A stretch of 64,000 nt of DNA from an uncultured Planctomycetia bacterium. Lineage in GTDB: Bacteria > Omnitrophota > Gorgyraeia > Duberdicusellales > 4484-171. The DNA is taken from the NCBI GenBank assembly GCA_964483625.1, contig CAZABB010000003.1, positions 21,895 to 85,894 on the forward strand, written 5' to 3'. The notes under the pieces are model-generated. The model was not told the DNA's origin. It saw only the letters and a program-made list of their open reading frames with translations, and searched no databases. Below are positions 27,101 to 62,516 of the stretch, piece after piece. Position 1 is the first letter of the stretch. Every line of letters begins with the position of its first letter. Both the position numbers and the translations under genes were made by a program.

Positions 27101-30100
27101 TGCTCAGCGGACCAGAAACGTCGTTCATATGGGGGCAGGCGTGCTGCCGCCGGAAAACCGGTACGCGCCGCTTTCCCGAAAAGAAATCCGAAAAATTGTT
27201 GCGGCTTCTTTAGAAATACTCGAAACCGTGGGGATGGAGGTCCCCGGAGATTCTCTGGGGATCTGGGAAAAAGCGGGTGCGAGAATCGATATCGATCGTA
27301 ATCGTGTCTACCTGCCGGTATCTCTTGTATTATCGGCGCTTACTTCTGCGCCCTCGCGGGTGGTTCTGTATTCACGGACAGCTGAAAATGAGGGGGTAAT
27401 TGTTGATGAGAATCATACGTCTTTCGGGAGCGGCGGCCAAGCGGTAAAAGTGGTGAAAGAAGAAGGGGGGGTACGGGAAAGTACCCTGGAGGATATTTTC
27501 CATATCGGCCGGATTGTCGACGAGCTTGAACAGATTCATTTCTATCTGCGGCCGGTAGAGGCGCAGGATGTTCCCGAAGCCGAACGTGATTTGAATGCCT
27601 ATTACGCCTGCTTAGCCGCGACGCAGAAACATGTGATGGGAGCTTGTTCTTCGGCGGAGAGCGTAAGACAGGTGGTGGAATTGGCTTCTTATATTGCCGG
27701 GGACAAGGAAGTGTTACGTGAGCGTCCCTTTATTTCGTTCACTACTTGTTGTGTCGAACACCCGCTTAAATTCAATCCCTATGTACTGGACATACTAAGG
27801 GAAATTATTGCCGCAGAACTCCCGGTCGTACTTTCTGCCGCACCCCAGCCGGGGGTGACCGCTCCCATCACATTGGCGGCGACTCTGGCTCAGGTGTATG
27901 CGGAGTTGTTCGGATCTCTTACGTATGTACATCTGCTTCGTCCCGGCCATCCGGCGTTGATTGGCGCGACCTTATTTACCAGCGATATCAGGAGCATGGG
28001 AACATGTGCCGGGTCAATTGAAGCCGCGGTATTGAACGCCGGTGCCGTGCAAATCGCCAATTATTTGAAATTACCGCTTTACACTACGGCGGGGGTTACT
28101 GAAAGTAAGCTTCCCGATGATGCTCAGGCGGCAATGGAATCGGAATCGACGCGGACGCTGGTAAGTCTCGCGGGAGGAAGTTTGGTCCATCATGCGGCCG
28201 GTATGCTTGAGACATTGCTTACCGTAGCCCCCATAAAGTATGTGCTTGATAACGAAGGAATTGCACGCATAGTACGTCTGACGCGGGGGGTTAGTGTTAA
28301 CGATGAAACACTGGCGTTGCCGGTGATCGCCGAAGCCGCCGAAGCCGGCGATACATTTGTCTTTATGGCCGGAGACCACACTCAGTCTTATATGCGCACC
28401 GAGCTTGATCTGCCCGGCCCGGCTATTGATCGAAATGCTCGTGAACAATGGAGTGCCGCGGGAGGATCAAGTGCGGGACAACGGGCGGACGAATGCCTTC
28501 AGGGAATGGAGCTTCAACCAGAGGGAACGTATATACCTGATGAGGTCGATCGCTTATTACGCGAGCGATTCGATATCCGGCTGCCGCGAAATCCTGTGTC
28601 CCCTGTTTCTGAAGCTGCAGAGGCAGCAGATCATTATATTACCTCTGCCGCGATGTATGCGGCGGCGGGAGAATATCCGCGGTATGCCCGGCAGTTCAAC
28701 CAGACGGGGGATATGCTCAATGTGCTTGAGGAATATCTGATTGAATCCGGCAAAGTGACCGGACCGCCGTGCGTCGCCGAACGTAAAGATGGCAGGGTTA
28801 TCTGGCATCTGAATGTATTTCAAATTATCAATATATTACGCCGTCAGTATCGTCTTATTTCTATCCTTTCTCTGCTTATTCAGATTTTTATCCATGAATC
28901 CCGGCCGAATGAAGAAAAAGCCATCCGTGCCCAGATACAATATTACACGTTCCTTGCCCGCCTCTCTACCCTTCCGCCACTCCGGGAGTGGAGGTCGGGT
29001 GTGGTGAGAAGCCGGCCGGATCGGTTCGACTTGGCGCCTTCTCCGGTCGGTAACGTTGAAGTACATCCGACCAACCGCTGTAACCTGCTGTGCCAAGGGT
29101 GCACGTATATCGCGTGCGATCGCCGGGAGACGTTGTCTTTCGGCGCTTTAGATTCTCTGGCGCAATTGTATCCGTCAGCAATACTTATCGTCGGGGGAGG
29201 AGAACCGACCTTATACCGGGACGGGGATAAGAGATTCAATGAGTTCGTACTGCGTGTCAGAGAACTTCTTCCCGATGCGCATATCAGCCTTACAACGAAC
29301 GGGATTTTTATTCCGCCCGGTACATGGCAGGATCATGTCGGTTTTATAGGTATATCTTTGCACGGAAGTTCTCAGAGAGAGTATGAGGATTTTACCCGTA
29401 CAAAGAAAAAGGATTGTTTCGAAACGGTATGGCGGAATATTTTTGAACGGTATCTGCGGGACAGTCCGATTCCCACCGTGGTCGTGTCGTACGTCTACTC
29501 GCGGGATAATTATGAGAATATCCTGCCGTTGACGAGAAAGTTGTGGCAGGCCTGGGAGGAAGTGGAAGCTCAGCTGCGGGTCCGGGGAAGAGAAAAAGAA
29601 TTTCGTTTTGTCTTGCAGCCTTACGCCGATGATACGCTTCCCGCCGATCCCTATGCATATGCCAATCTTACCGGCCCCCAGAAAGAAGCGTACCGCAGGA
29701 GGCTGGAATCCATAGAGAAGGACGAACCTCTCTTCTGGGAATTCATCAAAAAGCACGCTTCACATGTGCGCACATATCCGTTGAAGGAACATAAAGCTCC
29801 CGGAGTGAATTCCTGCTGGATGGTCGCCGATTATGTATTGTTGGGCGCCGACGGCATTTTTTATCCCTGTTGTGTTATGGCCGCGGCGGCGCGCGCGTGT
29901 AATCTCGGCCCCGTGGAAGATGGCATTGATATGCTCCGGGAAGAACGCCAGCGTCTCATGGAATCCGTTCCTCCGCGCTGCCGGCAGGGATGCCGTCTTG
30001 TCGGTACGTATATGGGGAAAAAGGTGCGTGCCCATTTACGGAAATATTCAGAAGAACAAAGTCCGGGTAGCATGTATAATCTGGGGGTAACGGGATTGTT

Positions 30101-33100
30101 ATTAGGTTTGAGCGTAACGAATCTTGGTATGCCGCCGGCCGGCGTTATTGTTCCCGGCAGCGGCGCCCCTTCATCCGCCGGCTATGTAATCCCTCTGGTT
30201 GCGTTTCTCCTTGTGGCCGGTCTCATTGCGCTGGACTTTCTGATCTTTGAATATGAAAAGATACGGTCATTTATCCGCACGGTTACGGTGAGGGTGAAAA
30301 GGAATATCGTCGTCGGGACGGGGATTGTATTACTTATCTTCATGTTCGGGATTACCGGATGTACAGGGGACTCCGGACGTACCGATCCCGTTCCTTCACC
30401 GTCTTCGCCGGCCGTTGTCGGGGTGTCAAAGACGAAGGAGTTGAATGCGATGTTTCTCGTCGTCGACCAGGAAAGTGCTTACGCGATGCATCGGGTCGTG
30501 GGAGGGAATTGTGAAGACGACTGGGTTTCTACCTGGCTTACGTTTCAATGGGAGGTATTTCAGCGTTCGATACGGGAACAGTACGGTGTGGCACTTATTC
30601 TGCGCGATGTTGCCTGGCCTCCCTGTAAAAAAGTCAACGTTACCCTGGCTCAATTCCCCGGCGGCGTTCATATCGGCGGTGATATCCCGGAAGTGCGGGA
30701 AGTTATTGCCCGGGAACATCTGCCGGTTGATACGGTTATTCTTACCGTCGAGGATCTTGAGTGTCCCTACGGTTTAAATGCCACAGAGATTCAGCGCTGC
30801 TCCATGAGAGAGAACGGCAGGGAGATTGAGGTGAATCAATGGTGGCAAGAGGAACTGATCGAGCAGGGCGTTCTGGAAGAGATATCCGGTGAATCTTCAC
30901 TCATACCTTTACAGGATGATACTCCGCCGGTACTGCGCTCCTCTGTTCTTTCCGGATATCCGTTATTTGTTGAGAACACGCAGTGGCTTTTCGGGTGTTC
31001 TCTTCTCAATGTGTTTATTGGTTTGTCCCTCCGTATCCGTTCTTTTTTTAGAAATAAAATCCCCGGGCAAGTACTCTCCACCTTGGGGGAGGCCTCTTCC
31101 GTGACTGTAGGCGCCCTCCTTGCCCGGGATGTATTTAAAAAGTATCATTGCTCCGCCGCCGCGTTTTTGCTGTTTTTCCATTCTTTCCAAAGTATGGCAG
31201 GAGACGGCAGACAGGCGATCGGTCTGGCGCTCATTGGCTTTATGTGTCTGATCGGATTGTGGATTACCGTGGAGACGGTTTTGTTCGCCCGGAAATGGAT
31301 CTATACGATTAATCCGCAACAGATGCTGGAGAAACAGTTCATCGGAAAAGTTTCTCTGCGTGATTTTATCCGGTATGCCGCGCCGGTAGTGCTGATAGAC
31401 GTGATGAGTAAACTATCCGTCGTTTTTCTCACCGATATCCCCCGGACGGCCGGCGATACGGTGACCGCATCAACACCCCATATTGCCCTGGGAGAGTCTC
31501 TCTGGTGTGCCAATTTCCGTTTAGACGCGGAAAACTGGATGGGGATATCTGTAGGAAACATTCCCTGGGTTATCTTCGCGGGATTTTTTGCGCTGGCGTT
31601 GGGGTATCTTCTTATGATGTTCCGTTTCCATCGTTCCCGGAAGTTGAGGAACGTCTCCGAAGTCGGTTTGATAGTTATTTCTTTTCTGCGTATGCTTCTG
31701 TTTGTCATGGCCGGAACAGGTATTGCCACAGCCATCTCCCTTCAATGGACGATCCTTCCGACCGACTGGATCGTCTTTAATACGCTCGATGGCCCCATTC
31801 CTACTAATTTCGCTGATATAATCGGATTGTTCACCGTGGCGGTATGGCTTCTGATGTGGATAACTCTTATGACCATGGAGTCGATGGATCGAACGCGGTC
31901 AGGTGAGGGAGGAATATGCCGTCTCGTAAGCGGATGTCCCGTTTGTTCACCGCAAGAGGATTTCCCGCCGGGATTTTTTTACGATGAAATATCCTGGGAC
32001 GAAGAAGGTCAGGTTGAGGTTGATAACGTACTGTGTGATTTATCCCGGCGTCAGGCGGAAGAAGGGTTTGGTTTTCCTCATTACTGGGATCAATTGCTGA
32101 CCGTAGGTGAGATGTGCGAGGGAACAACGGACGTGAGTTTGAGAGAGCGGTATCGTCAGGCATTACGGGAAGAGGCCGAAGATGCCAGGATGGTCGAAGT
32201 AAAAGATCTGGATATGTTTAAAGTCATCAAAATACTCTGGCGTCCTCTGCGTCGTTTCGGGTTTCCCGGGACCAGACGGAACGGGCAGGCGGTCAACGAG
32301 GGATGTTTTATCTGTATCCCCAATATGTCCTCGTTACAGAGGGGAGTAAGAGTGGAAGGGGGATTGCCCGTGCCGCTTCGTCAGCCGGATGCGCCGTCAG
32401 GGCCGATTGCATCGGCACATCAAACCGTTTTGTTTCGCAAAGATGGTTTGATGTTAAGTCAGCTCGATAGGCCGTGGCCCAACGTTGTCTATGTTGCTCA
32501 AGGGGATATTCGGGATATCGCACGGTTTATCATGTTCATGAGAGAAGGTTTACGAAATAAGTTTCCCGCTGAGAGTCAAAGGAGAGGGTTTAACATTCTC
32601 TTTACCCGTGATCAGAACAGGGAGGTAAAAGTATTCTTCATCCCCCGGCGGAAATTAAAGCCGTCGGGATTCGGAAATGAGTTCGCCGCGTTTGAGATGT
32701 GCGGAATCATTGTACTGCATCGTACCGGGGATTTTATCCAAATGCAGGAAGAACATATTTATAACGCATTGGCGGAATGCGGGTATCCTCAGGATGAAGA
32801 CGGCCGCATGCGCGAGGTGTTTGATGATGCGGTAGCCGCTTTATCCGAAAGAGAGAGCGATGAAGAGGATTCCTGCGACACTGATTTTGCCGCTCTCTGC
32901 AATCCTTTTGCCATCGTGCCCCATCATATCACACTGGCTTCTTTATCCCACATTCCGCAGGAGCTCACGTTTTCTTGTCTTCTGTTTATTCTTCATCTTA
33001 CCGGGCATTGCCGCGATTTCCGTTTCTGTTTTAATTCTATCGACGGCGGAGCTTCGATCGAGAAACATCTGCATTTTCAGGGGACAGACCTGCCGTTTCC

Positions 33101-42100: not shown

Positions 42101-45100
42101 GGAAATGAAGGAGGCGTTTCCTGACGGAGGGGTATACTTTATCGAGGTAAGCGATACCGTAGACACTTTTTATCTCTTCCGGTTCCTTGTCGACTCGGGA
42201 ATGTTCATTGCGCGAAAAAATGGTGAAGAGGACGAATTGCCCGATACGTCTTTTCTTTGTCTGACCGGTATCATCGCTGCTATCCTCCTTCCTTTTTCTC
42301 TGAGACATGCTGTATCGGCGGAGCAGGTTTTTTGCTTTCTGTTCTGCATTTCCAGTATTATTTCGCTCGGGCATGTTTTATCGGGAGTTCGGGGCGGACA
42401 AAAGGGAAATGGTTCGCTATCCGGTGCCATAGAAGATATAGAGTCCATGAGTATAGAAGCCGTAAAGAAGGCTGTGAATGGCGACAAAGTCATTGAAGCC
42501 AGCGGCAGTCCCCGGGGAGGAAAATTCTTTATCTGGACCAGGGATAGTTGTCTGGGTATGTTGGGTGTCCTGCGATGGGTAGAGAGATTATTGAGGCAGG
42601 GTAATTGCGTCCCGGGCGAGTCGTGGCTCGAGGTTATCGAGAAAAACGTAGTCTTGCTTTTGGCTCATGTCCGAGAGGATGGGGCTGCCCCGGTGAATCT
42701 GGGACAGAAACGGTGGTATACGTTGCTGGGAAAACGTCATTTTCTTTCCCGTTTCCTTGACCGCTTCGTGTATGATCATTATGATCCCCGTTATGAAACG
42801 GCTTTTATGAAACGTAATGGTATGGCTTACGATAATAACGCTTTGCTGATAACCGCCGCCGCGGAGTATTATCAGATATGCGCCGAATATGATCCGGAGC
42901 GGGCGGATTCGTTTCTCAAGAAATGGTATCCCGTACTTTGTCGCTTGCTCCGGTGGTATTGGGACCACGCCGATGAGAGACGGGAGGTAATTCATGCGCA
43001 GGGACGGTTTGCCACTTGGATGGATTCGGTCAATAAACGAGGGCACATCGGTCTTATTCAGATTCTCTACCTGAACGCTTTGTATGCCTGCGCCGAATTA
43101 TCGCAGAGATACATAGCGGCGGGTGGGAAGGCGGAAACGATCCGGGCCGCACGCCGGGAGAGAGAGGTCTGCCGGATGTTGGCACAGCGGGTGAAAGAGA
43201 ATCTCCTGTCGGAATTCTGGGTTGAGAATGGTGATGGCACCGGGTATCTTCTCGACTGGATAGATGAGGTAGGCGAACCCGTTGTCCATTTCGATACCGC
43301 AACCAATTTACTGGCGATCTATCTGGGAGTTCTCGGCGAAGAACGGATACGGAGCGTGTTTACTTACATTGAACATGCCGGAATCGATCGGCAAGGGTTA
43401 ATTATGACCCGCTATCCTTCGATGTTTCCTGAACGTTATGTGGACCGGGGATACAAATTCATCGGAATGAAAGATTATCACGGAGGCAATACCTGTTGGC
43501 TGTGGCTGGAGGGGCTTTATCTCGGTGCTCTTTGCCGGGCGGCGGAACGGCGGGTATTCTCTTATGGAGAGCCGTATTATAGGAAAGCCGCCGAGAGGGT
43601 GGAAATACTTCATGCCGCTTTAACCGGGAAAGGGGAGATATATGAGGTGGCCGATGTCCGGGGTAATCCGCGGATATGGTGGCTCGGCCCGTGGCCGTGC
43701 CATCGCAGTCAAGGCCAGTTCTTCTGGGCCGCGGGGATGATCCTGGGAGGGATTACGCATTTTAAGATGAGGGAAGAACCAGGTCTTTCCGGCAGGTCGC
43801 TTAAAGATGTTTTTGCTGCGGGGAAGAAACTGGCGGTGCTGCGGCGCAGTTACGAAGAAAAATTGATTGTCGCGGTGATTCCTGCCGTGTTGATCGGGAT
43901 TGTCTTGTTTCTTTTATACGTTTTTTCCGTGGGAGGAGAGGAAATATCTATTCTCCCCGCAGGTTTTTCTCCCCTGCTGGGAGGGATGATCTTGGGAGTA
44001 CCGGATATGTCCCGGCCGTTGACTCGCTTGAAGAAAGCATATAAAGACGGGAGGGATTTTCTGGAACGCGTCGGATTACGTTGGTATGAAACGATTTCTC
44101 TTAGTAAAGCCTTCCGGTTATTGAAGGCAAGGAACAATCATCTTGAGTTTGAAGAAAAGACGATCATGGATTGTATTATGAAAAATATTGTAATTCGGAT
44201 TATCGATTTCAGGAACGTAGGCGCGGACGTCCAGGAAGAGAGGATAAGCCTTTTGAATATATTACGGATTGTTTCGTCTCTCTATCAGAAGCAGCATGAT
44301 TCTTTGCGTTCGGTCATCGTGAAAGAACTGTTTTATCCCGAACTGGAGCAATTACTCATCCCTTCGCCCTATGTGGATCCGGAGGCAAGTCAGGTGCGTA
44401 TTCATAGGGTAGAGGAGAACATTGTTCGTTTCTGCGAAGAAGGATTGGGAGTCGATACGGATTTGCGTGTGATCAATTCCCAACGCGCGTGTCTTCGGCC
44501 GAGTAAATACCATTGGATTACGCTTACCCTGAACGGCCGCAGATACGTCCGGCTGGTACCGGCGAATCTGCTTCTGGTCGACCTTTTACGGGAAGAATTC
44601 GGCATCACCTCGGTGCAGAAATCCTGCGCGAGCGGAGAGTGCGGTGTCTGTGCGGTGATCCTGAACGGCAGAGCACTGACCAGCTGTATCGTGTTGGCGG
44701 TAGAGGCTGACGGCGCGGAAATCGAGATTTCTGAGTCGTCGTCAAACCGCTTCTTCCAATGCCGCGGCTGTCAACGGGCGGCGGAAGCGGTGTGCCGCAG
44801 CTATCTCCGGCAAGGCAGTCTATCGTCGGGTGCGGTGTCTGAAGAAGATATACGGCAAGCCTTAGCCGGCCAGTTCTGCGCCTGTACCGGATTATCGTCA
44901 CCCGCGTTGCTCAGGGAAATGAGAAGGATGTTTCAAACAGAAGAAAGGGGGAAGGTGCGGAAAGATATGGTGAAAATTCCCACACCGCATCCGTCCAATC
45001 TAATTCCTACCAGTGGAATCCCTCCGTTTGATTATTATACGCCTCGGACGCGCGAAGAACTGTTCGCCATCGTCGAACACGCCGCGAGCCGCTCACGAAA

Positions 45101-48100
45101 TTGGATTGTCCGTGCCGGCGGCACGGATTTAGTGAGTCGTTTCAAACAGACCGCAGGTACGTCGCACTATCCGGAGGTCGTCATCTCTCTGCGTCTGATA
45201 GAGGAATGTAGTGTAGTTGAGGTACGTGATGGCAGGGTACGCATTGGCGCGGGAATTACCCAGAGCGATTTAATTGACCGCCGCCGAAATCCGAAGTTGG
45301 TCGAGTTTTTCCATACCGTTTTACCGGCATTGCCGCAGGTGATCGGCGTGATGAGTTCCGGCCGGATCCGGGAGAGCGCCACGATTGTGGGAAATGTAAC
45401 TCGCGCGTCGACTCGCGGCGATTTGATCCCGGTCTTGATGGTGATGGGTACCGAAGTGGTCGTTGTGCATCGGAATGCCGACGGTCGTATCGTCGAAAGA
45501 ACGGTTCCTTTACCGGAATTTTTATGGGCGGTTCCTCGCTTGAAAGAAGAAAAGCAAATCGTCGTTGCGATTAAAATCCCTCTTGCCGCGCGGCGTCAAG
45601 TCGTATTCGCAAAAGTAGGCGGTCGGCAGACTGAAGGTCAGTTCAAATGTAAAGTGAATGTGGCCGCCGGCTGGGAGCATCCGAAACAAGGCTTTCCGGT
45701 ATTGCGGGTGGCCTATGGCGGTATCCGGCGGCGGGCGGAGCTGATCGATCCGGGACTTACTGCGGGGTTAGTACAAAATTGGTATAAACAGGATGGGCAT
45801 CTTTCCGATGAGGACCTTAGGGAATTTGCCTGTGCCAGTACCGTCCACTATACCGATGAACAATATCATCCCGCGTTTCATGATCGGATTCACCGCGGAT
45901 ACGCCCAGCGGGTTGCTTTTACGCAACAGATAGGAGCGGAGTTGTTACGAGAACTTTTTCCTGAAAGTACTGCAGACTATCCTGTTCCCATCGAAATTCC
46001 GGCATCGTTTCATTATCATCGGCCCATGCGTCAAATAACGACAGGAGGAATTGATACCGCTGATCGTTATCCGGTAATGACGGCCGATACCGTCGTTTTT
46101 GATATCCTTTATGGTCACCGTTCGCTGCGGGTAATCGAGGATATTCCCGCTTACGTCCTCGCGCGCGCTCAATGGAAACAGCTGTTTCGTGACCTTTCCC
46201 GCCGTTTTCCCGACGATGCGGCGCAGAAATTAATCAATACCGTGAAAAGGCGGATCGCTCAGGAACGAGAGTACGCAAAAAGACAGGCGGTAAAAGCACA
46301 GATAGCGACGTTGGAGCCGACGGTAAAGACAGAACATACGTATGTTCCTGATGTGGCCCAACGTTTACGGGCGGTATTCGGTGATGATTATTATCACGTA
46401 CTGCCGTTGCGCATCCGGGATATCCCACGGGTATGGGAGAAATACGGTACTCATTTTGTGCGCCGCGATGAAGACGGGGCGTTATGTTTCCGCGCCCGGC
46501 TGAAGCGTATCGGAGTGAGTGAAGAAATGGCTGCATTTCTTTCTGACCCGGTACAGCGGGGTGTGGTATTTGGTAAAGACGTTCCCCGGGAGATAACCGA
46601 CGAAGCATTTCAACAAATCAGATTGTTTTATCTCTGTGATAATTCTGGTTTTATTGCGAGTCCTAATACCGTAGTGGGCTTTGTCTATGCCCGTAATAAA
46701 AATGATCTATCCCGCATTGTACAGGATATCGAAGTTAAACTGATGCCGCTTGATCCGGTAACGACGATTGCCGAGGCACCCGCATATCAGGACAGACAGA
46801 CTTATCAGCGGGGCGCGGAAGCACACGTCCCGGAAGGGGAGAATTCCGGTGAACTGCGCAGGAATATCGGCATGAGAAGTATTCCGACCATCGGCCAACG
46901 CAGTGAATTGGCCGTCTTTAATCTTTTTGACCAATCCGCTGTCTCGGAAATCACGCTGTTCAGCGATACGCAGAAGTCGGCGCGGACTCTTGTCTGGCTG
47001 AGAAAGCTTACCGGTGTCGCTGCGCGGCTGGTTATGACTCCGGCTGCCGGGGCGTTTGGAAAAAACCTGTTTGTCGACGCGCCGCTGGCCGGATTCTTGA
47101 TTCAAGGAATGCGACAGAAAATGAGGAGCGTCGCCGCGGTTTCGCGTCGAGGCGCGTTTTTGCTCGATTCTGAGAAAATATTTGACGCGCGCAGTGTGGG
47201 AGCGAATTTCCATTTGGAGTATACGTATGACGAACAAGGGAAAATAAGAGCACTCACGGCACGTATCGACGTGGATAATGGATCTGTGCCGCTGATAGAG
47301 GAGGTCAATGAAGAGTTGTTGAACCGGTTCAAAATATTGACCGTGCCGATGATGGATATCACGGCATTTGGGTATCATACCAATATCGAATGGTGCCCGT
47401 ACGGGATACGGGGATTTAACGCCGAGCTGTCGTTGACGGTAATGAATCAGATGATTGCCGATATCGCCCGGCATATTGCGCAAAAATACAACCGGGATGA
47501 ATGGGAGGTGTTCTGGGAGGTGTGGCAGATGAATTTGCCGGATGACCCGCGCCTTACGGCAGTTATCGAAAAAACGAAACAACACCGTCTGCCGAAAGAA
47601 GATGAAGATTCGTTTCTCGGCCAGGCATTGGTGATCAAACACGCGGTCTTTCCCGGTATGTCCGCGCGCGGCAGTCTCATCCGGCATGGGCCGGGACAAT
47701 GGGGGATGAACATCCCTGCCTATGAGTTCGGCACGAAACTGGGAGAGACGTTTGAGCAGGCGTTCAATGATATCCTTGGCCAGCGGTTTTCAGCACAGAA
47801 ATTGTTACACATCAGTCATCGGGAAGTTATCTGTGCCGGACCGGACGAGTCCGGTGATGATGTGGTCGGTCTCAAAACAACCGATGCTTCCGCTTCGACG
47901 GAAAAACTGCAGGCACTCGCTCAGGATATTATCGAGAGCGGGTTACAAGTCATCCGGCAGGATGAACGGTTTTGCATTGAGGGAGATCCCAAATCAGTGC
48001 GTATCTTTGATCATCAAAGCAATCGACCTGTAGAATATTTTGATGCGTTGGAGATGGCGATGACAGAGCTAAACCGGCGGGAAATCCAGGGGAGTATAGA

Positions 48101-51100
48101 CTGGAAGATTACCGATACAAATATTATCGATCATTCCGCGATCGGCACCGCACAGATGCGCGTTGAATACGATGCCGAGGCGGGGCGACTCGCGGTTACG
48201 GATATTGTCATCGTAGCGTCTGCCGGGAAGATCATGAGCGAAGAGCGTGCCGCCGAAAATATCCGCGGCGGGATTATGCAGACATTGCCGTTTCTTATCG
48301 TCGGCCGCGACCATGATGAATACCGCCAGCATTCCTTGGATCGTGCCAATGTCGTCATCCATTTTGTGCCCGGCTTTCTCGACCATGCCATCGGGATCGG
48401 GGAATTCCCGGTACCGCTGACTATGGCTGCCGGACTTCATGTGCTTGGCCAGACTGACGCCGACATCACGGGCCTGCCTGTGCGGGAAGAAACTTTGTTT
48501 CATGAATCTCCGCTGGCGGCAGGAGGGGGGCTTTTATTGTTCCTTCCGGCAGAAGGCCTCCTGTTCGAGGCAAAGTATTCCTTTCCCGTTCTCTTTATCG
48601 GTGCCGTTATCTTTATCTCCGCGGCAATCGGTTTTCTTTTCTTTTTGCGGAAACAAGAAGGTTCAATTATCCCTATCCTCGATGCGTTCTGTCCCTGTGT
48701 GACGGTATTGTCGTTTTTGATTCTGGGGTATGCTTTCTATCGCCATACTTTCTCAACGTGGTATGTTCTTCTCAGTGTAACCGTCGGCATTGCCGCGTTG
48801 ATCGCCATGCGGTGCGCGAAAATCTCATTGGAAATCGCTGCCCAGGACGTAGCGGCACTCAAACATTTCGGGTACAAAAAACGCGAGTGCCTGTGTACCT
48901 CGGGAATCTATTCGGTATTGAGACACCCTTATTATAATATGTTCCGTCTTTTAGCGACGTACAGCATCCTTCTGTACCCTTCTCTCTACACGGTTCTTGG
49001 CGGAATGTTTATTTTTCTCTATACCGAATATGCGGCGCATGTTGAAGAACAGTATCTCGAGGCAGAATACGGCGATGAATTCCGCATGTATCGCGATGAG
49101 GTTCCTGCCTGGCTGCATCAGTTTCCCGGCCGGTTTCTCTTGGTCCTTACGGCAATGGCGGTGGTGATCTATGTTCCCTGGCCGGCCGTAATTTCTTGGT
49201 TTGTCGTCGCCGGACTGTTCTTTCTGGGAGGGATCGATGATGTGGGACGCGACAGTAGATCCGAGAATAGAGACTGTGTGTGTTGCGGTTTAAAGGATCG
49301 TTATACCGATGTATTCCTTGATGAGGCCGGGGTATGTAATTTCTGCAGGGATTTTGCACGCCGCAAAGACACCGATGAAGGTCTACAGAAAGTTTTGTCG
49401 GAAAACAGGGAGGAACAACTGGAATATCTTGGCTCTCTCTTTGCCGCTGAAAGAAAGAGAACCGGGCAAAGGGGCCGTTCTTACGATGTTCTCGCCATGG
49501 TCAGCGGAGGAAAAGATAGTATCGCGATGTTATATGAATTGATAGCGATACACCGATTAAGAGTCTTGATCTATACCGATACTTCAGGCATACAGACCTC
49601 GACCGGGGTCGAAAACATTAGGGATGCGATGCAGACATTACATATTCCTCCCTCAAATTGGGTACATAACGATACGAATGCGGGGGTAGAAATATTTACT
49701 CCTTACCTGAGAAACAGGCAGTTACGGAATGCATTGCACCCGTGTACTTTCTGTAATTTTTTTCGAAAAAATCTTGTTGTAAGAGCGTATGAAACCGCAG
49801 CGCAATACGGTATTACCCTTATCGTCGACGGACAATCATATAAGGATATGGCCATATTCGATAACTATTATGCTCAACAGAGGCAGATAGCGAGCCGTTT
49901 TATCAGAGAGCATCCGGAAGAGACAGATTTGATTTCGGAACGTTACGGATACAGTGATTTCTACGATAGAGACTGGCTGCGGGAAAGATTCCCTTATATC
50001 CGGCAGATTTCGTACTGGCAGGAAATCTTTTACGATATGGACTATTATGTGGACTTTATAAAACGTGAGCTGAAATGGAAGGCGGATAGAGAGCCCTGTA
50101 CTACTTTATGTTATATCCCGGAACTTAAAAGACTCCTGTGGGAGGTTTTTGAAATAAACGGCGGGCAGAACGGATACATTCCGCCTCATGAGTGGATAAA
50201 AGCTTTTGAACGGCGTATCGGAGCAAGACGGAAAATTATGAACGGAAAGGCCTGGCCTGGTTCGGAGGCTGAAACGATACAACGGATCAAAGGAATACTG
50301 AGCCTTTTCGATATGGATATGGAAGATTTACTGGTTCAGTTAGACCAAGACAAGCAACGGAAAGCCAGAGAAATATTGGCGAGATTCCAGGGAGAAAAAG
50401 AATCTGCTCAAAAGGGATTTGCTTTTCTGCCAATATTGGTTGTTCCAGGAGCGATAACGGAATTTCAGCAGTTATCTCCTCCCATCATCCAGTATATCCT
50501 TATTTTTGTTTTCCTCCTGATACTATCTCTGTATATTGCTTTTCTTCTGCGGGAAAAGAAAAGGTTCTCTAAAGAAAGGAAATATTCACAGCGTTTTGAA
50601 CATGAAATTGTTCTCCCCGCCCACGAATCATGGCAGGCAGTGAGAGGGGTATTGCTGGATACGGTACGGGATGGTTGGCGAGAGCTATCGGCATATGGAA
50701 TTGAGACCGGCAGGTATCAGAATCCCCAAAATTGGCGGTTTAGTGAAATCGAGGGTGTACAGCGGTATATTCTGCGGACACTTTCGGGAGAAAGACGGTT
50801 CCTGGCGCTGGTTACCTTAAGCTTTACCCGGATGCTCATATCGGCCTTTTCTGATCATTGGGAAACCGCCGGGCCCCCGCAATTACTTCAGACCTATCTG
50901 GATGAGAAAGAGCGCTTCGTAAAGTTGACCCGGGCCGCCTTAGCCGGGCTGACGCCGCGGGAGACCGAACGGTATCTGGCGGGAGACGAGGCTGTGGTTC
51001 ATAAAGTCTTTCGTGCCGTTTCTCCTCTATCTCCCGAACGGGTGGGATCGTTCTTTGCCCGGAAAAAACACCGGGATCTTTTAACGTACTTTTCGCAAGG

Positions 51101-57190: not shown

Positions 57191-57478
57191 ATGCAACCTG
57201 ACGCCAATGTCGCTATCGCCCAGTTTTTACCGCTGATTTTTCTTTTCGTCGTCTTTTACTTTCTGCTTATCCGTCCGCAGAAAAAGAAACAGGCTGAACA
57301 TAAAGCTCTCATCGAAGGACTCAATAAAAACGATGAGATCGTAACGGTCGGAGGGGTACACGGCACGGTAATCAATACCAAAGAGAAGACGTTCGTGATC
57401 CGGGTCGATGACAATGTGAAATTCGAAATCGATAAACAGAGTGTAGCCTATTTAAAAAAGAAACAGAATAATGGTTAA
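57191..57478 (+). CDS. yajC: Preprotein translocase subunit YajC
   Basis: A single N-terminal TM helix, FYFLLIRPQKKKQAEHKALIEGLNKNDEIVTVGGVHGTV. SD AAGGAGG. The 3' end overlaps the secDF start. Confidence 0.9.
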   Translation: MQPDANVAIAQFLPLIFLFVVFYFLLIRPQKKKQAEHKALIEGLNKNDEIVTVGGVHGTVINTKEKTFVIRVDDNVKFEIDKQSVAYLKKKQNNG

Positions 57479-59636
57479 TCCCAAAGATCTCAGATTCCGT
57501 CTCATCGGAATCCTCGGCATCATCTTCTTAAGTATCTTCTATATCTTCCCTTTAGGTGAGAAGATCAACCTCGGTTTGGACTTAAAAGGGGGGATGTATC
57601 TGGTGTTAAAGGTAGATACCTCCAAAGTTGCTCCCGATAAGGTGAACGATGCTACCGAAGTTGCTCTGGAGATCATTCGCAACCGTATCGATGAGTTCGG
57701 CGTTAAAGAGCCGACGATTCAGGTGCAGGGGAATAATTCTATCCTGGTACAACTGCCCGGTGAAGTCGATCGCGACCGGGCGATCAAGTTGATCGGTCAG
57801 ACGGCGTTTTTGGAATTCAAAATGGTCGAAGATGACCAGCAGAAACTCGATCAGGCGAAAGAAGGCGCCGTTCCCGCAGGGTATGAACTGAGCTCCTATG
57901 ATGGGAAACCGCTTTTACTTACCGAAGAAGCCCCGATTTCCGGCGCGGATGTCGCCAGCGCCCAGTCGAGTTTTGATTCCAATATGTTTCCTCTGGTGAC
58001 CCTGCAGTTTAATAGTGAGGGAGCCAAGAAGTTCGCTGCGGTAACCCGGGATAATGTAGGCAACCGTCTGGCCATTGTGCTTGATGGAGTAGTTAAAAGC
58101 GCTCCCGTGATTCGGGAGGCGATCGGAGCCGGTGAAGCTCAGATTACCGGCGATTTTACCGTACAGGAAGCGCAGGATCTGGCGTTGGTGTTACGGGCCG
58201 GGGCTCTCCCGGCGCCGCTGGTGATTGAGGAAGAACGTACCGTAGGGCCTCTTCTGGGGAGCGATTCTATTCGCCGCGGCGTTCAGTCGATCGCGGTGGG
58301 AGCGATTCTGGTAGCTATATTTATGCTCATCTATTATCTTCTCGGCGGGGTTGTAGCCTTGGCGTGTCTGGTGCTTGATCTCCTTTTTGTCATGGCGGGC
58401 TTGAGTTTCTTAAAAGCGACGCTGACGTTGCCGGGCATTGCCGGTATGATCTTAACGCTGGGGATGGCCGTAGATGCCAATGTCCTTATTTTCGAACGCA
58501 TTCGGGAAGAGCTTAATCAGGGTCGGCCTCTAAGTGTTGCGGTGAAGAACGGGTTTGACCGCTCCAAGCGGACGATTTTCGATGCCAACATTACTACATT
58601 GATTGCCGCGCTGTTTCTCTTCCGGTTCGGGACCGGGCCCATCCGGGGATTCGCCACGACTCTTTCTCTGGGTATTGTCGCCAGTATTTTTACCGCGGTT
58701 TTTATCGGCCGGACAATTTTTGCGATCCTCTTGAATACCAGGATAAAGAGGATGACCATGCTGCGGATTCTCAAGGACCCCAACATCAATTTCGTAAAAA
58801 TCAAAAACATATGTCTTATTGTTTCTTTGATTCTCATCGTTATCGGGGCCGTAAATTTCCAGTCCCGCGGCGACGATATGTACGGTATCGATTTTAAAGG
58901 CGGCCAGATCCTGCAATATCAGATTACGCCTGCGCCGGAGATCGAAGATGTGCGTGACGTTCTTGAGACCAATATTGAGCAAAAAGTAACGTTGCAGTCG
59001 TTTCGAGATATCGCCGGCGGCGTTATTATTAAAAGCAAAGAGGATATTACCGCTCAAGTCGAACAAACCCTCAATGAAAACTTCGCAGACGCACAGCGTC
59101 TGAGTATCGATACGATTGGTCCGGCGGTAGGGGAGATCCTGCGTACGAAAGCTCTCCTGGCGGTCACGCTGTCGCTTCTGGGCATATTGATCTACATCGC
59201 CTTCCGGTTCAAACATTTTGATTTCGCCTTTGCCGCGGTATGCGCGGTGTTTCACGATGTGTTGATCAGTATGGGGTTTCTTGCTTTGTTCGGATACGAA
59301 ATTAATCTTCTTACCATTACGGCACTGCTTACCCTTGCCGGATATTCGGTAAACGATACCATTGTCGTCTATGACCGGATACGGGAACTCTCTCCCAAAC
59401 TGTACAAGCTGCCGTTACCGGAGATCATCAATCGGGCCATTAATCAGACGCTTTCCCGTACGATCATAACCTCATTTACGACCATTGCGGTTGTCCTCTG
59501 TATCTTTATCTATGGGGGTGAAGCTCTGCGCGGATTTTCATTCACTCTGCTCGTCGGGTTTATGGTCGGGACTTACTCCTCGATATACATTGCGTCTCCT
59601 TTAGTTCTCTTTTTCCGTCGGGCCCGTCTCCACTAA
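57471..59636 (+). CDS. secDF: Fused protein translocase subunit SecDF
   Basis: 721 aa. A SecD periplasmic domain and 6 TM helices, then a SecF-type periplasmic domain and 6 TM helices. The start overlaps the yajC stop (ATGGTTAA). Confidence 0.9.
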   Translation: MVNPKDLRFRLIGILGIIFLSIFYIFPLGEKINLGLDLKGGMYLVLKVDTSKVAPDKVNDATEVALEIIRNRIDEFGVKEPTIQVQGNNSILVQLPGEVDRDRAIKLIGQTAFLEFKMVEDDQQKLDQAKEGAVPAGYELSSYDGKPLLLTEEAPISGADVASAQSSFDSNMFPLVTLQFNSEGAKKFAAVTRDNVGNRLAIVLDGVVKSAPVIREAIGAGEAQITGDFTVQEAQDLALVLRAGALPAPLVIEEERTVGPLLGSDSIRRGVQSIAVGAILVAIFMLIYYLLGGVVALACLVLDLLFVMAGLSFLKATLTLPGIAGMILTLGMAVDANVLIFERIREELNQGRPLSVAVKNGFDRSKRTIFDANITTLIAALFLFRFGTGPIRGFATTLSLGIVASIFTAVFIGRTIFAILLNTRIKRMTMLRILKDPNINFVKIKNICLIVSLILIVIGAVNFQSRGDDMYGIDFKGGQILQYQITPAPEIEDVRDVLETNIEQKVTLQSFRDIAGGVIIKSKEDITAQVEQTLNENFADAQRLSIDTIGPAVGEILRTKALLAVTLSLLGILIYIAFRFKHFDFAFAAVCAVFHDVLISMGFLALFGYEINLLTITALLTLAGYSVNDTIVVYDRIRELSPKLYKLPLPEIINRAINQTLSRTIITSFTTIAVVLCIFIYGGEALRGFSFTLLVGFMVGTYSSIYIASPLVLFFRRARLH

Positions 59637-59721: not shown

Positions 59722-60591
59722 ATGGAATTATATGATTTAATTGAAAAAGGGAAAGTAAAGCGATACTTGAGTGCGAAAAACAAAGTAGTCTATCCAGGAG
59801 GCGTCTATCATATTACCCATCGGGCTCCTGGCCGGGAAGTCCTTTTTTTAGAGGATACGGATTATCTGCGTATGTTAGCATTATTAAAAAAAACGGCGCA
59901 AAAATTTCAATGGGATATTTTTGCTTTTGTCCTTATGAAAAATCATTTTCATGTTTTATTAAGAATAAAGGAAGCAAATCTTTCCCAAGGGATGAAGAAA
60001 CTATGTGAATCCTACGCGATGTCTTTCAATGCAAAATATGAAAGGAAGGGGAGCGTTTTTTCTCGTCCCTATCGTGCGGCGTTATGTGTTGATGATGTCT
60101 ATTTGCTCGCCATATCGTTATATATCCATCTTAATCCATTGAAGGCGAGGATTTGTGAATCGCTTGATGAGTATCGCTGGAGTTCTTTGGATCTTTATAA
60201 ACGAGATAAGAAAAAATCTTTTGTAAATGCTGATTCCGTATTAAATGTTTTATCCAATGATCGGACACTATCAACGAAGAAATATAAAAATTTACTTCAA
60301 CAGATGACCCAGTTAGAATTTAAAAACATTATCGAAAGGCCACGTTTTATTGAATTTTTCTGTGAAAAAACAAGGGGTTATTTACGTAAAAATAGTAATT
60401 TGAACGATAGAGTAGAGGAAGAGTTATTAAAATTTAAGGATAAAAAGAGATTACGAGAACCGAAGGAAATTCAAGCGCGGAAATATTTAATTGAACAGTT
60501 ACTGGCGAGAGGATATTCAGTTTTAGATATTGCTCGGCGATTAAATCTTACTCGTAAGGCAGTGTATGATATTATTAACTATACAAAATAG
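59722..60591 (+). CDS. REP-associated tyrosine transposase (IS200/IS605 TnpA-like HUH Y1 nuclease) with a C-terminal helix-turn-helix extension
   Basis: VYHITHRAPGREVLFLEDTDYLRMLALL...WDIFAFVLMKNHFHVLLRI is the HuH motif. ...GSVFSRPYRAALCVDDVYLLAISLYIHLNPLKA carries the catalytic Tyr region. The C-terminus is YLIEQLLARGYSVLDIARRLNLTRKAVYDII, an HTH. Confidence 0.75.
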   Translation: MELYDLIEKGKVKRYLSAKNKVVYPGGVYHITHRAPGREVLFLEDTDYLRMLALLKKTAQKFQWDIFAFVLMKNHFHVLLRIKEANLSQGMKKLCESYAMSFNAKYERKGSVFSRPYRAALCVDDVYLLAISLYIHLNPLKARICESLDEYRWSSLDLYKRDKKKSFVNADSVLNVLSNDRTLSTKKYKNLLQQMTQLEFKNIIERPRFIEFFCEKTRGYLRKNSNLNDRVEEELLKFKDKKRLREPKEIQARKYLIEQLLARGYSVLDIARRLNLTRKAVYDIINYTK

Positions 60592-60623: not shown

Positions 60624-62516
60624 ATGTTTGAAACGTTTAAAATCTATACGCACAAAGAGATTTCGCTCAATGAGGTCAGTTCTCAGCTGGCTCATCTGGG
60701 ATATCGCCGCGTCGATGACGTAACCGAGGAAGGTGATTATTCGGTGCGGGGGGATGTTCTGGAGGTTTTCTGCGCCAATTTCAATTTCCCCGTCCGCATG
60801 GAATGGACGTTTGAGATTATCGATAAGATATACAGTTTTGACAAAACCATCCAGAAAAAACTCATCGATTACGATTTCCTCATCGTCATTCCTTATCGCA
60901 AGAAGATCAAAAAATATACCGAAGATATCCCCCTGGATATTGTGTTGAAGATAAAAAAAGGAGATTTTGTCGTCCATACCCAGTACGGTATAGGCAGATT
61001 TCTCGGTGTAAAAAAGATGGAAGTGAAAGGTGCCCAGGAGTATTTTTTTGCGATCGAATATGCCGATAACGCCAAACTCTATATTGCCAAAGAACAGGCG
61101 CATCTGGTTCAGAAGTACGTAAGTTTTACCAGTCGTGCTCCCAAATTATCAAAGCTGGGGACGAAAGAGTGGAGCCGCCTGAAAGAGAGGGCGCAGAATG
61201 GAATACGGAAGTTTGCTCTGGAACTTCTGCGGATGGAAGCCCAGCGTAAGCTGATCGGAGGATTTCGCTATGGTTCCGATACCGACTGGCAGAAGCAGTT
61301 CGAGGACCTTTTCTCGTATCAGGAGACCGAAGACCAACTTAAAGCTACGGCTCAGCTTAAAAAACATATGGAATCGAATGCGTGCATGGATATGCTTGTC
61401 TGCGGCGATAACGGCTACGGGAAGACCGAAGTCGCGATGCGAGCGGCATTTAAAGCCGTCATGGGCGGCAAACAGGTTGCTTTTCTTGTGCCAACGACAA
61501 TTCTTGCCTACCAGCATTACATTAATTTGAAAGAACGCACCAGAGATTTTCCCGTCGAAGTTCAGATGCTTTCCCGTTTCCGCACCGGGGGCGAACAAAA
61601 AGATATTGCCCGCCGGCTGGCTGAAGGAAAAATTGAGATCATCGTGGGGACGCACCGGTTGTTATCGAAAGATATCGCCTTCTGTGACCTGGGACTTCTG
61701 ATCATCGATGAAGAGCATCGTTTCGGCGTCTTATCGAAAGAGAGGATAAAAAAGATAAAAATAGGCATCGATGTCCTCACCCTTACCGCAACTCCTATCC
61801 CGCGTACGTTATACATGGGATTGATCGGCATTAAGGATATTGCCCTGATCCGCACTCCGCCGAAAGAACGCCTGGCGGTAAAGACTGAAGTCATGGAATT
61901 CTCTTCTGGCCGGATTCACGCTATCATCACCAAAGAAGTCCGACGCCGTGGCCAGGTGTTTTTTATCCATAATCGTATTGAGAGTATCTATAAAATAGAA
62001 AAGAAACTAAAGAGTATTCTTCCCGGCGATATCCGTATCGCGGTCATCCATGGCAGAATGCGACCTAAGGAAATCGAAAAGATTATGCTTCAATTCATTG
62101 AAAAAGAGGTCGACGTACTCCTTTCTACCGCGATTGTTGAGTCGGGGATCGATATCCCGGGCGCGAATACGATTATCGTCAACGATGCGCATCGGTTCGG
62201 ATTAAGTGATCTGCACCAGTTACGCGGCCGGGTCGGCCGGAGCACCCGGCAGGGATATGCTTATTTTGTGGTCGGCCGGTTTTCCTCGCTATCTACCGAT
62301 GCCGAAAAGAGGCTTCGTTTGCTTGAGGAGTTTTCTCACCTGGGGGCGGGATTTGAGGTGGCGATGAGTGACCTGGAATTGCGCGGCGCCGGCAATCTTT
62401 TGGGGACCCAGCAGCATGGTTTTGTATGGATGATCGGATTTGATTTGTATTGTCGTTTATTGAAAAAAGAGATAGAATATCTCAAAAACACATTTAAGAT
62501 CGAGATAGGAGGATAG
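60624..62516 (+). CDS. mfd: Transcription-repair coupling factor, compact form of 630 aa
   Basis: LGYRRVDDVTEEGDYSVRGDVLEVF, then the RNAP-interacting block DFVVHTQYGIGRF, SF2 motifs LVCGDNGYGKTEVAMRAAFKAV and LLIIDEEHRFGV, motif VI HQLRGRVGRS, and the TRG motif DLELRGAGNLLGTQQHG. Roughly 500 aa shorter than canonical Mfd. Confidence 0.8.
   Translation: MFETFKIYTHKEISLNEVSSQLAHLGYRRVDDVTEEGDYSVRGDVLEVFCANFNFPVRMEWTFEIIDKIYSFDKTIQKKLIDYDFLIVIPYRKKIKKYTEDIPLDIVLKIKKGDFVVHTQYGIGRFLGVKKMEVKGAQEYFFAIEYADNAKLYIAKEQAHLVQKYVSFTSRAPKLSKLGTKEWSRLKERAQNGIRKFALELLRMEAQRKLIGGFRYGSDTDWQKQFEDLFSYQETEDQLKATAQLKKHMESNACMDMLVCGDNGYGKTEVAMRAAFKAVMGGKQVAFLVPTTILAYQHYINLKERTRDFPVEVQMLSRFRTGGEQKDIARRLAEGKIEIIVGTHRLLSKDIAFCDLGLLIIDEEHRFGVLSKERIKKIKIGIDVLTLTATPIPRTLYMGLIGIKDIALIRTPPKERLAVKTEVMEFSSGRIHAIITKEVRRRGQVFFIHNRIESIYKIEKKLKSILPGDIRIAVIHGRMRPKEIEKIMLQFIEKEVDVLLSTAIVESGIDIPGANTIIVNDAHRFGLSDLHQLRGRVGRSTRQGYAYFVVGRFSSLSTDAEKRLRLLEEFSHLGAGFEVAMSDLELRGAGNLLGTQQHGFVWMIGFDLYCRLLKKEIEYLKNTFKIEIGG

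Follow-up and report, generated by a model that had tools for sequence, protein, structure and literature searches.

A strongly diverged xanthine-dehydrogenase-type module fused in frame within a giant membrane protein of an Omnitrophota genome

Introduction

Can a complete redox module of the xanthine dehydrogenase (XDH) family be carried in frame inside a giant membrane protein, and would its molybdenum half still function there? The question is raised by a 64,000-nucleotide stretch of contig CAZABB010000003.1 (assembly GCA_964483625.1, forward-strand positions 21,895 to 85,894), hereafter the window, to which all nucleotide positions refer. It contains a giant open reading frame (ORF) along which a hydropathy scan, a crude method for membrane segments, finds ~65 membrane-like hydrophobic segments. 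An earlier note on this DNA had placed within that ORF, at 44.5–48.45 kb, a complete XDH-family module consisting of two [2Fe-2S] sites, a flavin adenine dinucleotide (FAD) domain and blocks that resemble the C-terminus of a molybdopterin large subunit, in an order that it called eukaryote-like. We are confident that the segment is a complete colinear module of the XdhA-XdhB type, a soluble bead of ~1,500 amino acids (aa) fused in frame between membrane anchors of an Omnitrophota giant, and equally so of its make-up: a plant-type and a helical [2Fe-2S] domain, an FAD domain, a long linker, and a hammerhead-like segment followed by a two-lobed homologue of the molybdenum (Mo) subunit. Its Mo part is so diverged that binding of the molybdenum cofactor (Moco) may be lost.

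Results

A soluble module in one frame between membrane segments

All motifs quoted in the earlier note were recovered in a single frame of the giant ORF (translation of 43899–49199; Table 1), and its proposal of a xanthine oxidase (XO)/XDH-family iron-sulphur (FeS)–FAD–Mo module, colinear and in frame in a membrane-studded giant, was thus borne out in one ORF. At ~50% GC, chance cannot account for a frame that stays open over 18,162 codons. The soluble stretch that carries the motifs extends over giant aa ~14,659–16,178. The transmembrane hairpin that precedes it has 10 lysine or arginine residues in its 15-residue flanks and none in its short GGEE loop, and because of this bias the positive-inside rule predicts a cytoplasmic module, which suggests that the module lies on the cytoplasmic side of the membrane. 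Loading of FeS, FAD and Moco would likewise have to take place there. In the transmembrane block right after the module, a signature resembling PEMT/ICMT-like membrane methyltransferases was also seen (PF04191, E 3.3e-4; window 48860–49080, giant aa ~16280–16350).

Table 1. Features of the giant ORF and of the XDH-type module, with motif positions
Feature	Window position	Strand	Basis or remark
Giant host ORF, 18,162 aa	27..54515	+	ORF list and hydropathy scan
Transmembrane hairpin, N-terminal anchor of module	43866..44000 (giant aa 14614–14658)	+	hydropathy scan
~170-aa linker, no recognisable domain	44001..44504	+	no Pfam match for 43980–44510 at E<=10
Two [2Fe-2S] domains, Fer2-like and Fer2_2-like	44505..44930	+	NCBIfam, PDB match, alignment
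Motif CASGECGVC	44625–44651	+	
Motif QCRGC	44757–44771	+	
Motif CACTGL	44877–44894	+	
PCMH-type FAD domain (FAD_binding_5), motifs AGGTDL, ATIVGN, ASTRGD	45024..45584	+	PF00941, TIGR02963, XdhA-type alignment
Motif AGGTDL	45114–45131	+	
Motif TIVGNV	45381–45398	+	
Strongly diverged CO_deh_flav_C-like domain, probable	45588..45980	+	inferred from a partial alignment
~170-aa insert or linker, flavin to Mo part	45981..46490	+	helical; no Pfam match; low-confidence helices in AlphaFold2 model 1
a/b hammerhead (Ald_Xan_dh_C)-like segment	46491..46757	+	within hhalign match (query 252–594); strands/helices in AlphaFold2 model 2, pLDDT ~70–80
MoCoBD_1-like domain	46947..47519	+	PF02738, hhalign, local HMM
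MoCoBD_2-like domain	47568..48500	+	PF20256, NF043082, hhalign
Motif GIGEFPVP	48393–48416	+	
Motif AAGLHVLGQ	48426–48452	+	
Hydrophobic cluster closing module	48561..48806 (giant aa 16179–16260)	+	hydropathy scan

The FeS and FAD domains

The main Pfam and NCBIfam scan was run on a 1433-aa sub-sequence (window 44301–48599). Ligand motifs for both [2Fe-2S] sites claimed at 44.5–44.95 kb are present: the ligands of cluster 1 follow C-x4-C-x2-C-x11-C (44625–44687), and those of cluster 2 lie in QCRGC and in a CAC (44877–44885) that aligns with the canonical CRC. NCBIfam models of FeS subunits match residues 69–210 of the sub-sequence with E-values of 1e-22 to 1e-16, the best being glyceraldDH_gamma (E 1e-22) and the gamma subunit of 4-HBCR (E 5e-20), and the top sequence match of the FeS part in the PDB is 4zoh_C (E 2e-17). 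Six of the eight cysteines occupy invariant columns of our alignment A6 (C50, C55, C58 and C70 of cluster 1, and C134 and C136 of the cluster 2 CxC); for the remaining pair a QCxxC motif is there, but ~11 residues upstream of the place at which HMMER and MAFFT put the canonical CxxC. Fer2 and Fer2_2 both score under their Pfam cut-offs, the latter with 15.8 bits against 30.3 over profile positions 21–67 of 75, and the second FeS domain is, to judge from these alignments, remodelled.

The PCMH-type FAD domain, for which AGGTDL and TIVGNV had been cited, scores well over its cut-off (PF00941, 88.8 bits against 27, E 4.9e-25, profile positions 2–169 of 170), TIGR02963 xdhA, the NCBIfam model of the FeS-FAD small subunit, matches with E 2e-24, and the motifs GGTDL, ATxxGN and ASxxGD are all retained in the alignment with XdhA-type proteins. 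No Pfam match to CO_deh_flav_C was obtained even at E<=10, either for the whole sub-sequence or for separate pieces. The NCBIfam xdhA and glyceraldDH_beta alignments extend to residues 475–478 of the sub-sequence and cover only the first half of this domain, and FAKVGGRQ...RVAYGG of the query is aligned to the canonical YKVSKRR...RLAFGG; hence a CO_deh_flav_C-like domain probably follows the FAD domain. The linker between flavin and Mo parts is, by alignment, much shorter in canonical proteins than in the query.

Homology of the Mo half

The Mo segment was taken as window 45738–48500 (921 aa), and the numbers of Mo-site residues (Q412, E889 etc.) refer to it. For 46–48.4 kb, where the earlier note had allowed for an outcome without any significant hidden Markov model (HMM) match, matches were obtained to PF02738 MoCoBD_1 (E 4.7e-4, residues 883–1059, profile 58–232 of 244; E 1e-4 as a separate piece) and to PF20256 MoCoBD_2 (E 3.4e-4, residues 1260–1329, profile 185–250 of 283; E 4.2e-5 as a separate piece), and two NCBIfam models of the XdhA Mo subunit match at the same C-terminal place (NF043082, E 4.7e-4; the other, E 3.5e-3). 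The FeS, FAD, MoCoBD_1 and MoCoBD_2 matches are colinear and in the order expected for the family. Among the domain models that had been proposed for checking the module, FAD_binding_5 thus matched clearly and Fer2_2 fell under its cut-off, as did both MoCoBD families, and for the hammerhead (Ald_Xan_dh_C), as for CO_deh_flav_C, Pfam gave no match in the sub-sequence or in separate pieces.

Profile comparisons extend these matches. When the Mo segment was compared by hhalign with seven canonical Mo proteins, 300 columns from the hammerhead through MoCoBD_1 were aligned with a probability of 92.5% and E 4.8e-7, and the C-terminal third alone was placed colinearly with E 0.039. A local HMM of the same seven proteins gave 12.3 bits against the giant, compared with a maximum of 6.6 in 2000 shuffles, and MAFFT alignments with 7 and with 21 family members were colinear to the final residue. 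The predicted product of 46–48.4 kb is a full-length homologue of the XO-family Mo subunit, one that is invisible to annotation by curated thresholds.

Structure prediction is compatible with this. AlphaFold2 model 1, for the 921-aa Mo segment with an 8-row alignment, had a mean predicted local distance difference test (pLDDT) of 38.9; model 2, for a 687-aa core with a 22-row family alignment, reached a pLDDT of 64.5 and a predicted template modelling score (pTM) of 0.67. A Foldseek search of the PDB with model 2 returned XO-family Mo subunits only, over full-length alignments (E 5e-27 to 1e-23, TMq 0.55–0.63), among them 4zoh_A, quinoline oxidoreductase, 4-HBCR, carbon monoxide dehydrogenase (CODH), XDH and AOX. 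A 330-aa antisense ORF (46707–47699, minus strand) also lies within the Mo segment; it shows no sign of being a gene, and the base composition of the long frame on the sense strand probably explains it.

Retention and loss at the Mo site

Residues were numbered through an alignment of a canonical fused bacterial XDH (P0006) to rat and bovine XDH and through our family alignment A2, and the roles of the numbered Mo-site residues were assigned by reference to the published bovine and Rhodobacter capsulatus XDH structures. The equivalents of Gln767 (Q412 in FSDTQ, 46959–46973), of Phe798-Gly799 (F440-G441) and of Arg912-Gly-Phe914 (R558-G559-F in IRGFNAEL, 47406–47429) are retained, as is, tentatively, that of Arg880 (in LLNRFKI, 47316–47336). 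The motif LFDQ was ruled out as the Gln767 equivalent by the rat XDH alignment, in which Gln767 is the Gln of the STQ motif, corresponding to FSDTQ of the query. The active-site Glu suspected by the earlier note in GIGEFP held up in every alignment made, where it falls on the family-invariant, catalytic Glu1261 of bovine XDH (G888-E889). E889 is invariant across 22 sequences, and Q412 and R558 stand in invariant or nearly invariant columns. Thus the Gln, Arg and Glu for which a check had been suggested are there, and Glu802, specific for XDH, is replaced by Asn or Leu; the equivalents of Gly915 and Gln918 are gone.

A body of observations weighs against a working module. The MoCoBD_1 (19.8–22.0 bits) and MoCoBD_2 (20.6–23.6 bits) matches are both under the Pfam gathering score of 27. 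With P0006 as the control for preservation, the query keeps ~7% of the canonical Pfam bits for each of these two domains (280.6 and 306.7 bits in P0006), compared with 57% for FAD_binding_5 (88.8 of 155.6), 42% for Fer2 (16.2 of 38.9), 18% for Fer2_2 (15.8 of 87.7) and nothing for CO_deh_flav_C and Ald_Xan_dh_C (91.8 and 81.2 bits in P0006). Family-conserved columns were defined as those that are the same in at least 85% of 21 diverse members, including plant aldehyde oxidase, CODH-like, IorB-like and Se-dependent XDH proteins. Of these 40 columns the query retains 18 (45%), and in a leave-one-out comparison the 20 full-length references, from plant aldehyde oxidase to IorB-like, retain 70–100% and a 504-aa fragment with 17 gapped columns (P0019) retains 61%. 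Four motifs of the Mo site are altered: GGGFGGKE to AAGAFGKN (47043–47066), TEMGQG to YEFGTK with Gln1040 to Thr (47721–47738), TAASxS to PDESGDD with the Ala1078-Ser1082 loop reduced to a gap plus ESG (47841–47861), and GQxEGG to ENIRGG with Gln1194 to Asn (48255–48272); moreover, the KRHP motif is gone. As a set, the conserved pterin-contact residues (the GGGFGG loop, Gln1040, the Ala1078-Ser1082 loop and Gln1194) are not retained. The Mo-site residues that are retained are also positions that anchor the alignment, which inflates their apparent conservation, and the fold match of model 2 is partly circular because its alignment consists of family members only, so that it shows compatibility and no independent discovery of the fold. 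All four canonical Moco-contact loops are among the stretches of model 2 with pLDDT <50 (model residues 201–211, AGAFG; 319–325, RGF; 427–432, EFGT; 452–484, ESG). In the FeS half, the helical domain is without the first ~15–20 profile positions of Fer2_2. Finally, the Mo segment alone had no match among 5.8 billion clusters, phmmer with the Mo part found no true relative among 1.84 billion representatives, and Pfam scans found no Moco biosynthesis or XdhC gene or domain in the 64-kb window. Hence the word 'complete' in the earlier note holds for the architecture and fails for the state of the Mo half.

Domain order and relatives

The order FeS–FAD–Mo, taken in the earlier note as eukaryote-like, is not specifically eukaryotic. 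Among metagenome loci retrieved through similarity to the FeS-FAD part of the query, a Pfam-confirmed bacterial pair (L082) has xdhA (Fer2, Fer2_2, FAD_binding_5, CO_deh_flav_C) followed by xdhB (hammerhead, MoCoBD_1, MoCoBD_2), a single ORF of 1221 aa (L088) carries all seven domains in that order, and P0006 is a fused FeS-FAD-Mo ORF of 1255 aa. Most simply, the module would be a fused unit of the xdhAB type and no eukaryote-like oddity. Two further prokaryotic single-chain proteins of the XO family (P0010 and P0011, 1232 and 1242 aa) have the permuted order FAD-FeS-Mo and show that single-chain fusions outside eukaryotes come in several orders.

An alignment-driven scan of metagenome contigs returned 80 loci, all limited to query residues 6–466 (FeS and FAD) at 23–40% identity, and several of these matches span both halves (query residues ~19–466), as XdhA-type fusions do, L082 being confirmed as one by Pfam. 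A search with the whole module gave eight weak matches, seven through the FeS part only and one (P0006) at 27% query coverage. Close relatives of the module were sought in metagenome contigs and none was found, and a single-sequence PDB search gave nothing genuine for the Mo part. Two candidates were rejected: P0009, the sole phmmer match, is an artefact in which a 33-aa stretch was matched nine times in a repeat protein, and P0003, considered as a second degenerate module, has a canonical FeS domain, after which its sequence is of low complexity and looks frameshifted. In the collections searched for exact matches, neither a 45-mer of the window's DNA nor its SecDF protein was present.

The host ORF and its surroundings

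At least 15 distinct Pfam families were found in the giant ORF: guanylate kinase, NUDIX, glycoside hydrolase (GH)-like, hexokinase, GATase, Glu-DH, MTTB, radical S-adenosylmethionine (SAM), EamA, SAM-methyltransferase, GDE_C, PEMT-like and Helicase_C are among its content. Their preservation differs. MTTB (nt 27084–28565, 558 bits) and hexokinase (nt 20277–21566, 196 and 215 bits) are near-canonical, guanylate kinase, NUDIX, GATase, radical SAM and SAM-methyltransferase are intermediate, and Glu-DH (29 bits), GDE_C (20 bits) and a GH-like barrel (24 bits) are strongly eroded, to a degree comparable with the Mo domains. Helicase_C matches near the C-terminus of the giant (27.4 bits, E 4e-6, giant aa ~17,077–17,182); Pfam gave no SecA_DEAD match in the ORF. 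The SecDF gene downstream (57471–59636) is 60–70% identical to those of ~30 metagenome-assembled genomes of Candidatus Omnitrophota, some of them labelled Planctomycetia, compared with at most 48% identity for other phyla, and on the basis of this identity the giant is encoded by an Omnitrophota genome.

Several other features of the giant and of the window were noted. A transmembrane-free stretch of 2,750 aa (window ~21945–30190, giant aa 7306–10055) carries the GATase, Glu-DH, MTTB and radical SAM domains. In the two hairpins that bound it, the inter-helix loops have 7 and 6 lysine or arginine residues versus 2 and 1 in the flanks, so that the positive-inside rule would place these enzymes, which depend on cofactors, outside the cell, opposite to the XDH-type module, a placement that is biologically implausible. 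The radical SAM domain (35 bits, window 29064–29525) immediately follows the MTTB-like domain within the chain, and Pfam found no Mob_synth_C match. Beyond SecDF, an ORF at 59722–60591 encodes an IS200-type Y1 transposase domain with a C-terminal helix-turn-helix, directly upstream of an ORF at 60624–62516 for a short Mfd-like protein of 630 aa with UvrB-interaction, RID, DEAD and Helicase_C domains, apparently without the N- and C-terminal regions that such proteins usually have. GC skew is positive in all 2-kb bins of the window, the cumulative skew climbs steadily, and all long ORFs with domain matches are on the plus strand, which fits a single replication arm with no origin or terminus within the window. 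No Rfam family and no tRNA was found in the 64 kb.

Discussion

What the module does depends on how much of the Mo half is still alive. To the view that 46–48.4 kb holds no Mo-subunit homologue at all, that its weak matches are chance and that only an FeS-flavoprotein is present, we give hardly any credence. Both MoCoBD matches are under the gathering score, a hammerhead match is lacking, no genuine match comes from single-sequence searches of the PDB or of 1.84 billion proteins, and the shallow-alignment AlphaFold2 model is poor, all as this view would have it, but two independent Pfam families and two NCBIfam XdhA models match colinearly and exactly where the family places them, the hhalign match has E 4.8e-7, the local HMM scores above all of the shuffles, and family-invariant Arg, Gly and Glu columns are matched. 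It is somewhat easier to imagine that the module has become inactive throughout and is now a relic or spacer, in which an xdhAB-like gene pair, once captured, is decaying in a structural or adhesive giant with no cofactor bound, and still we consider this improbable. Poor conservation and highly divergent domains have been reported for Omnitrophota giants (PMC10066038; bioRxiv 10.1101/2023.11.21.568195), no homologue of the module was found in the collections searched, and Fer2 and Fer2_2 are also under their cut-offs. Every cluster cysteine and the FAD motifs are nevertheless kept at ~25–35% overall identity, which is unlikely under neutral drift, the frame is intact over 54 kb, and the near-canonical MTTB and hexokinase of the same giant argue that it is no mere graveyard of dead domains.

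The alternative that deserves most attention is a live FeS-flavin unit on a dead Mo domain, in which the clusters and FAD would relay electrons between some donor, perhaps a pyridine nucleotide, and a partner, and the pterin-free Mo homologue would serve as a packing scaffold. The divergence is as uneven as such a unit would predict, with the FAD domain far better preserved than both MoCoBD domains; the retention of conserved columns is a clear outlier; Gln1040, the AAS loop, Gln1194 and KRHP are gone and the Moco loops are poorly modelled; moreover, the sister modules Glu-DH and GDE_C are eroded alike. We nevertheless find this doubtful, although it is a serious contender, because the catalytic residues that are most diagnostic remain (the equivalents of Glu1261, Gln767, Arg912 and Phe914) and the Mo-proximal cluster would then be left with no obvious partner; furthermore, we know of no Moco-free member of the XO family that could serve as a precedent. 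Apart from the FeS clusters and FAD, enzymes of this family have no redox site but the Mo centre. Since cluster cysteines and FAD motifs survive in an otherwise fast-drifting protein, electrons should still need a source, and because the cluster ligands, the FAD motifs and the catalytic Glu, Gln and Arg all survive, and the module offers the clusters no further redox partner, we lean slightly towards a live Mo chain. That the module still runs the chain of its family, from Mo through the two FeS clusters to FAD, is accordingly a tentative preference, held with a little less than even confidence.

On that preferred reading of a live Mo chain, a substrate would be oxidised at a remodelled pterin-Mo site that has kept the catalytic Glu (GIGE), the Gln of the STQ type and the Arg-Gly-Phe, and the electrons would then reach FAD by way of both [2Fe-2S] clusters and be handed to a soluble acceptor. 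The reaction would take place on the cytoplasmic side of the membrane, to which the module is tethered, with sugar-handling modules as neighbours. The fullest form of this proposal, a working molybdo-flavoenzyme that faces the cytoplasm, has a remodelled pterin pocket, is matured within a polytopic giant, acts on a new substrate and serves as one step in a metabolic array tethered to the membrane of an ultra-small Omnitrophota cell, seems to us rather unlikely as a whole.

Omnitrophota giants are mostly unannotated, and adhesion, predation and metabolism are debated as their roles. A three-cofactor redox module assembles only in the cytoplasm; it therefore offers a handle on the topology of this part of the protein and makes a role that is only extracellular and adhesive less likely. 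With a live Mo site, the module would be the most diverged member of the XO family seen so far, and one would have to ask how a polypeptide of this kind acquires its Moco; with a dead one, it would be, to our knowledge, an unusual example in which the fold of a Mo subunit persists as the scaffold of an FeS-flavin unit. For the present the general significance is limited, because this is one module in one unique protein for which no conserved relatives were found.

Comparison with known systems

The bacterial XdhA-XdhB enzymes of the Rhodobacter capsulatus type (PDB 1JRO), together with the fused forms P0006 and L088, have the same domain order as the query: Fer2, Fer2_2, FAD_binding_5, CO_deh_flav_C, hammerhead, MoCoBD_1 and MoCoBD_2, with putative counterparts at the CO_deh_flav_C and hammerhead places of the query. 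The FeS-FAD half matches 1jro_A with E 9e-12. Identity to these enzymes in the Mo part is ~18%, with MoCoBD scores of ~7% of canonical, and unlike them the query has the extra insert of ~170 aa before the hammerhead, a shortened helical FeS domain and an Asn or Leu for the XDH-specific Glu802, and has lost several pterin contacts. The bacterial enzyme is free, whereas the query is a bead in a membrane protein of 18,162 aa.

Eukaryotic xanthine oxidoreductases and aldehyde oxidases (bovine and rat XDH, human AOX1) are, like the query, one chain with the order FeS–FAD–Mo, share the equivalents of Gln767, Arg912, Phe914 and Glu1261, and resemble its predicted fold with TMq 0.57–0.62. The query is not specifically allied with the eukaryotic clade, since 4zoh, 1t3q and 1rm6, which are bacterial and archaeal structures, rank first in the fold search, and a bacterial xdhAB fusion explains the shared order equally well. 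The Sulfolobus glyceraldehyde oxidoreductase (4ZOH) provides the top FeS sequence match, the top NCBIfam FeS model and the top Mo fold match (4zoh_A, E 4.8e-27), but other members of the family follow by a negligible margin. That enzyme consists of three separate subunits, whereas the query is one chain. A sugar-acid role as in 4ZOH would fit the neighbouring hexokinase, GH-like and GDE modules of the giant.

Giant proteins of the host's kind have been described as Omnitrophota multi-enzyme giants, class 1 or 'multi-enzyme metabolic cluster' (bioRxiv 10.64898/2026.06.07.730766), and the 'Archaeovorins' giants have many transmembrane segments and highly divergent domains (bioRxiv 10.1101/2023.11.21.568195). 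A search of the literature on Omnitrophota for molybdopterin or molybdenum cofactor gave nothing relevant. The main texts of bioRxiv 10.64898/2026.06.07.730766, bioRxiv 10.1101/2023.11.21.568195 and PMC10066038 do not mention an XDH or molybdenum module, the first of them referring only to unspecified 'oxidoreductase content'. Like the multi-enzyme giants, the host exceeds 10,000 aa, has many transmembrane segments and is tiled with diverse, often divergent enzymes of cytoplasmic type (hexokinase, NUDIX, methyltransferase, radical SAM); it may also share with them a helicase-type domain near the C-terminus, where Helicase_C matches. The host ORF thus matches the described type of Omnitrophota multi-enzyme giant protein, and the module within it adds an extreme variant to an enzyme family that was known, in a host of a class that had been described before.

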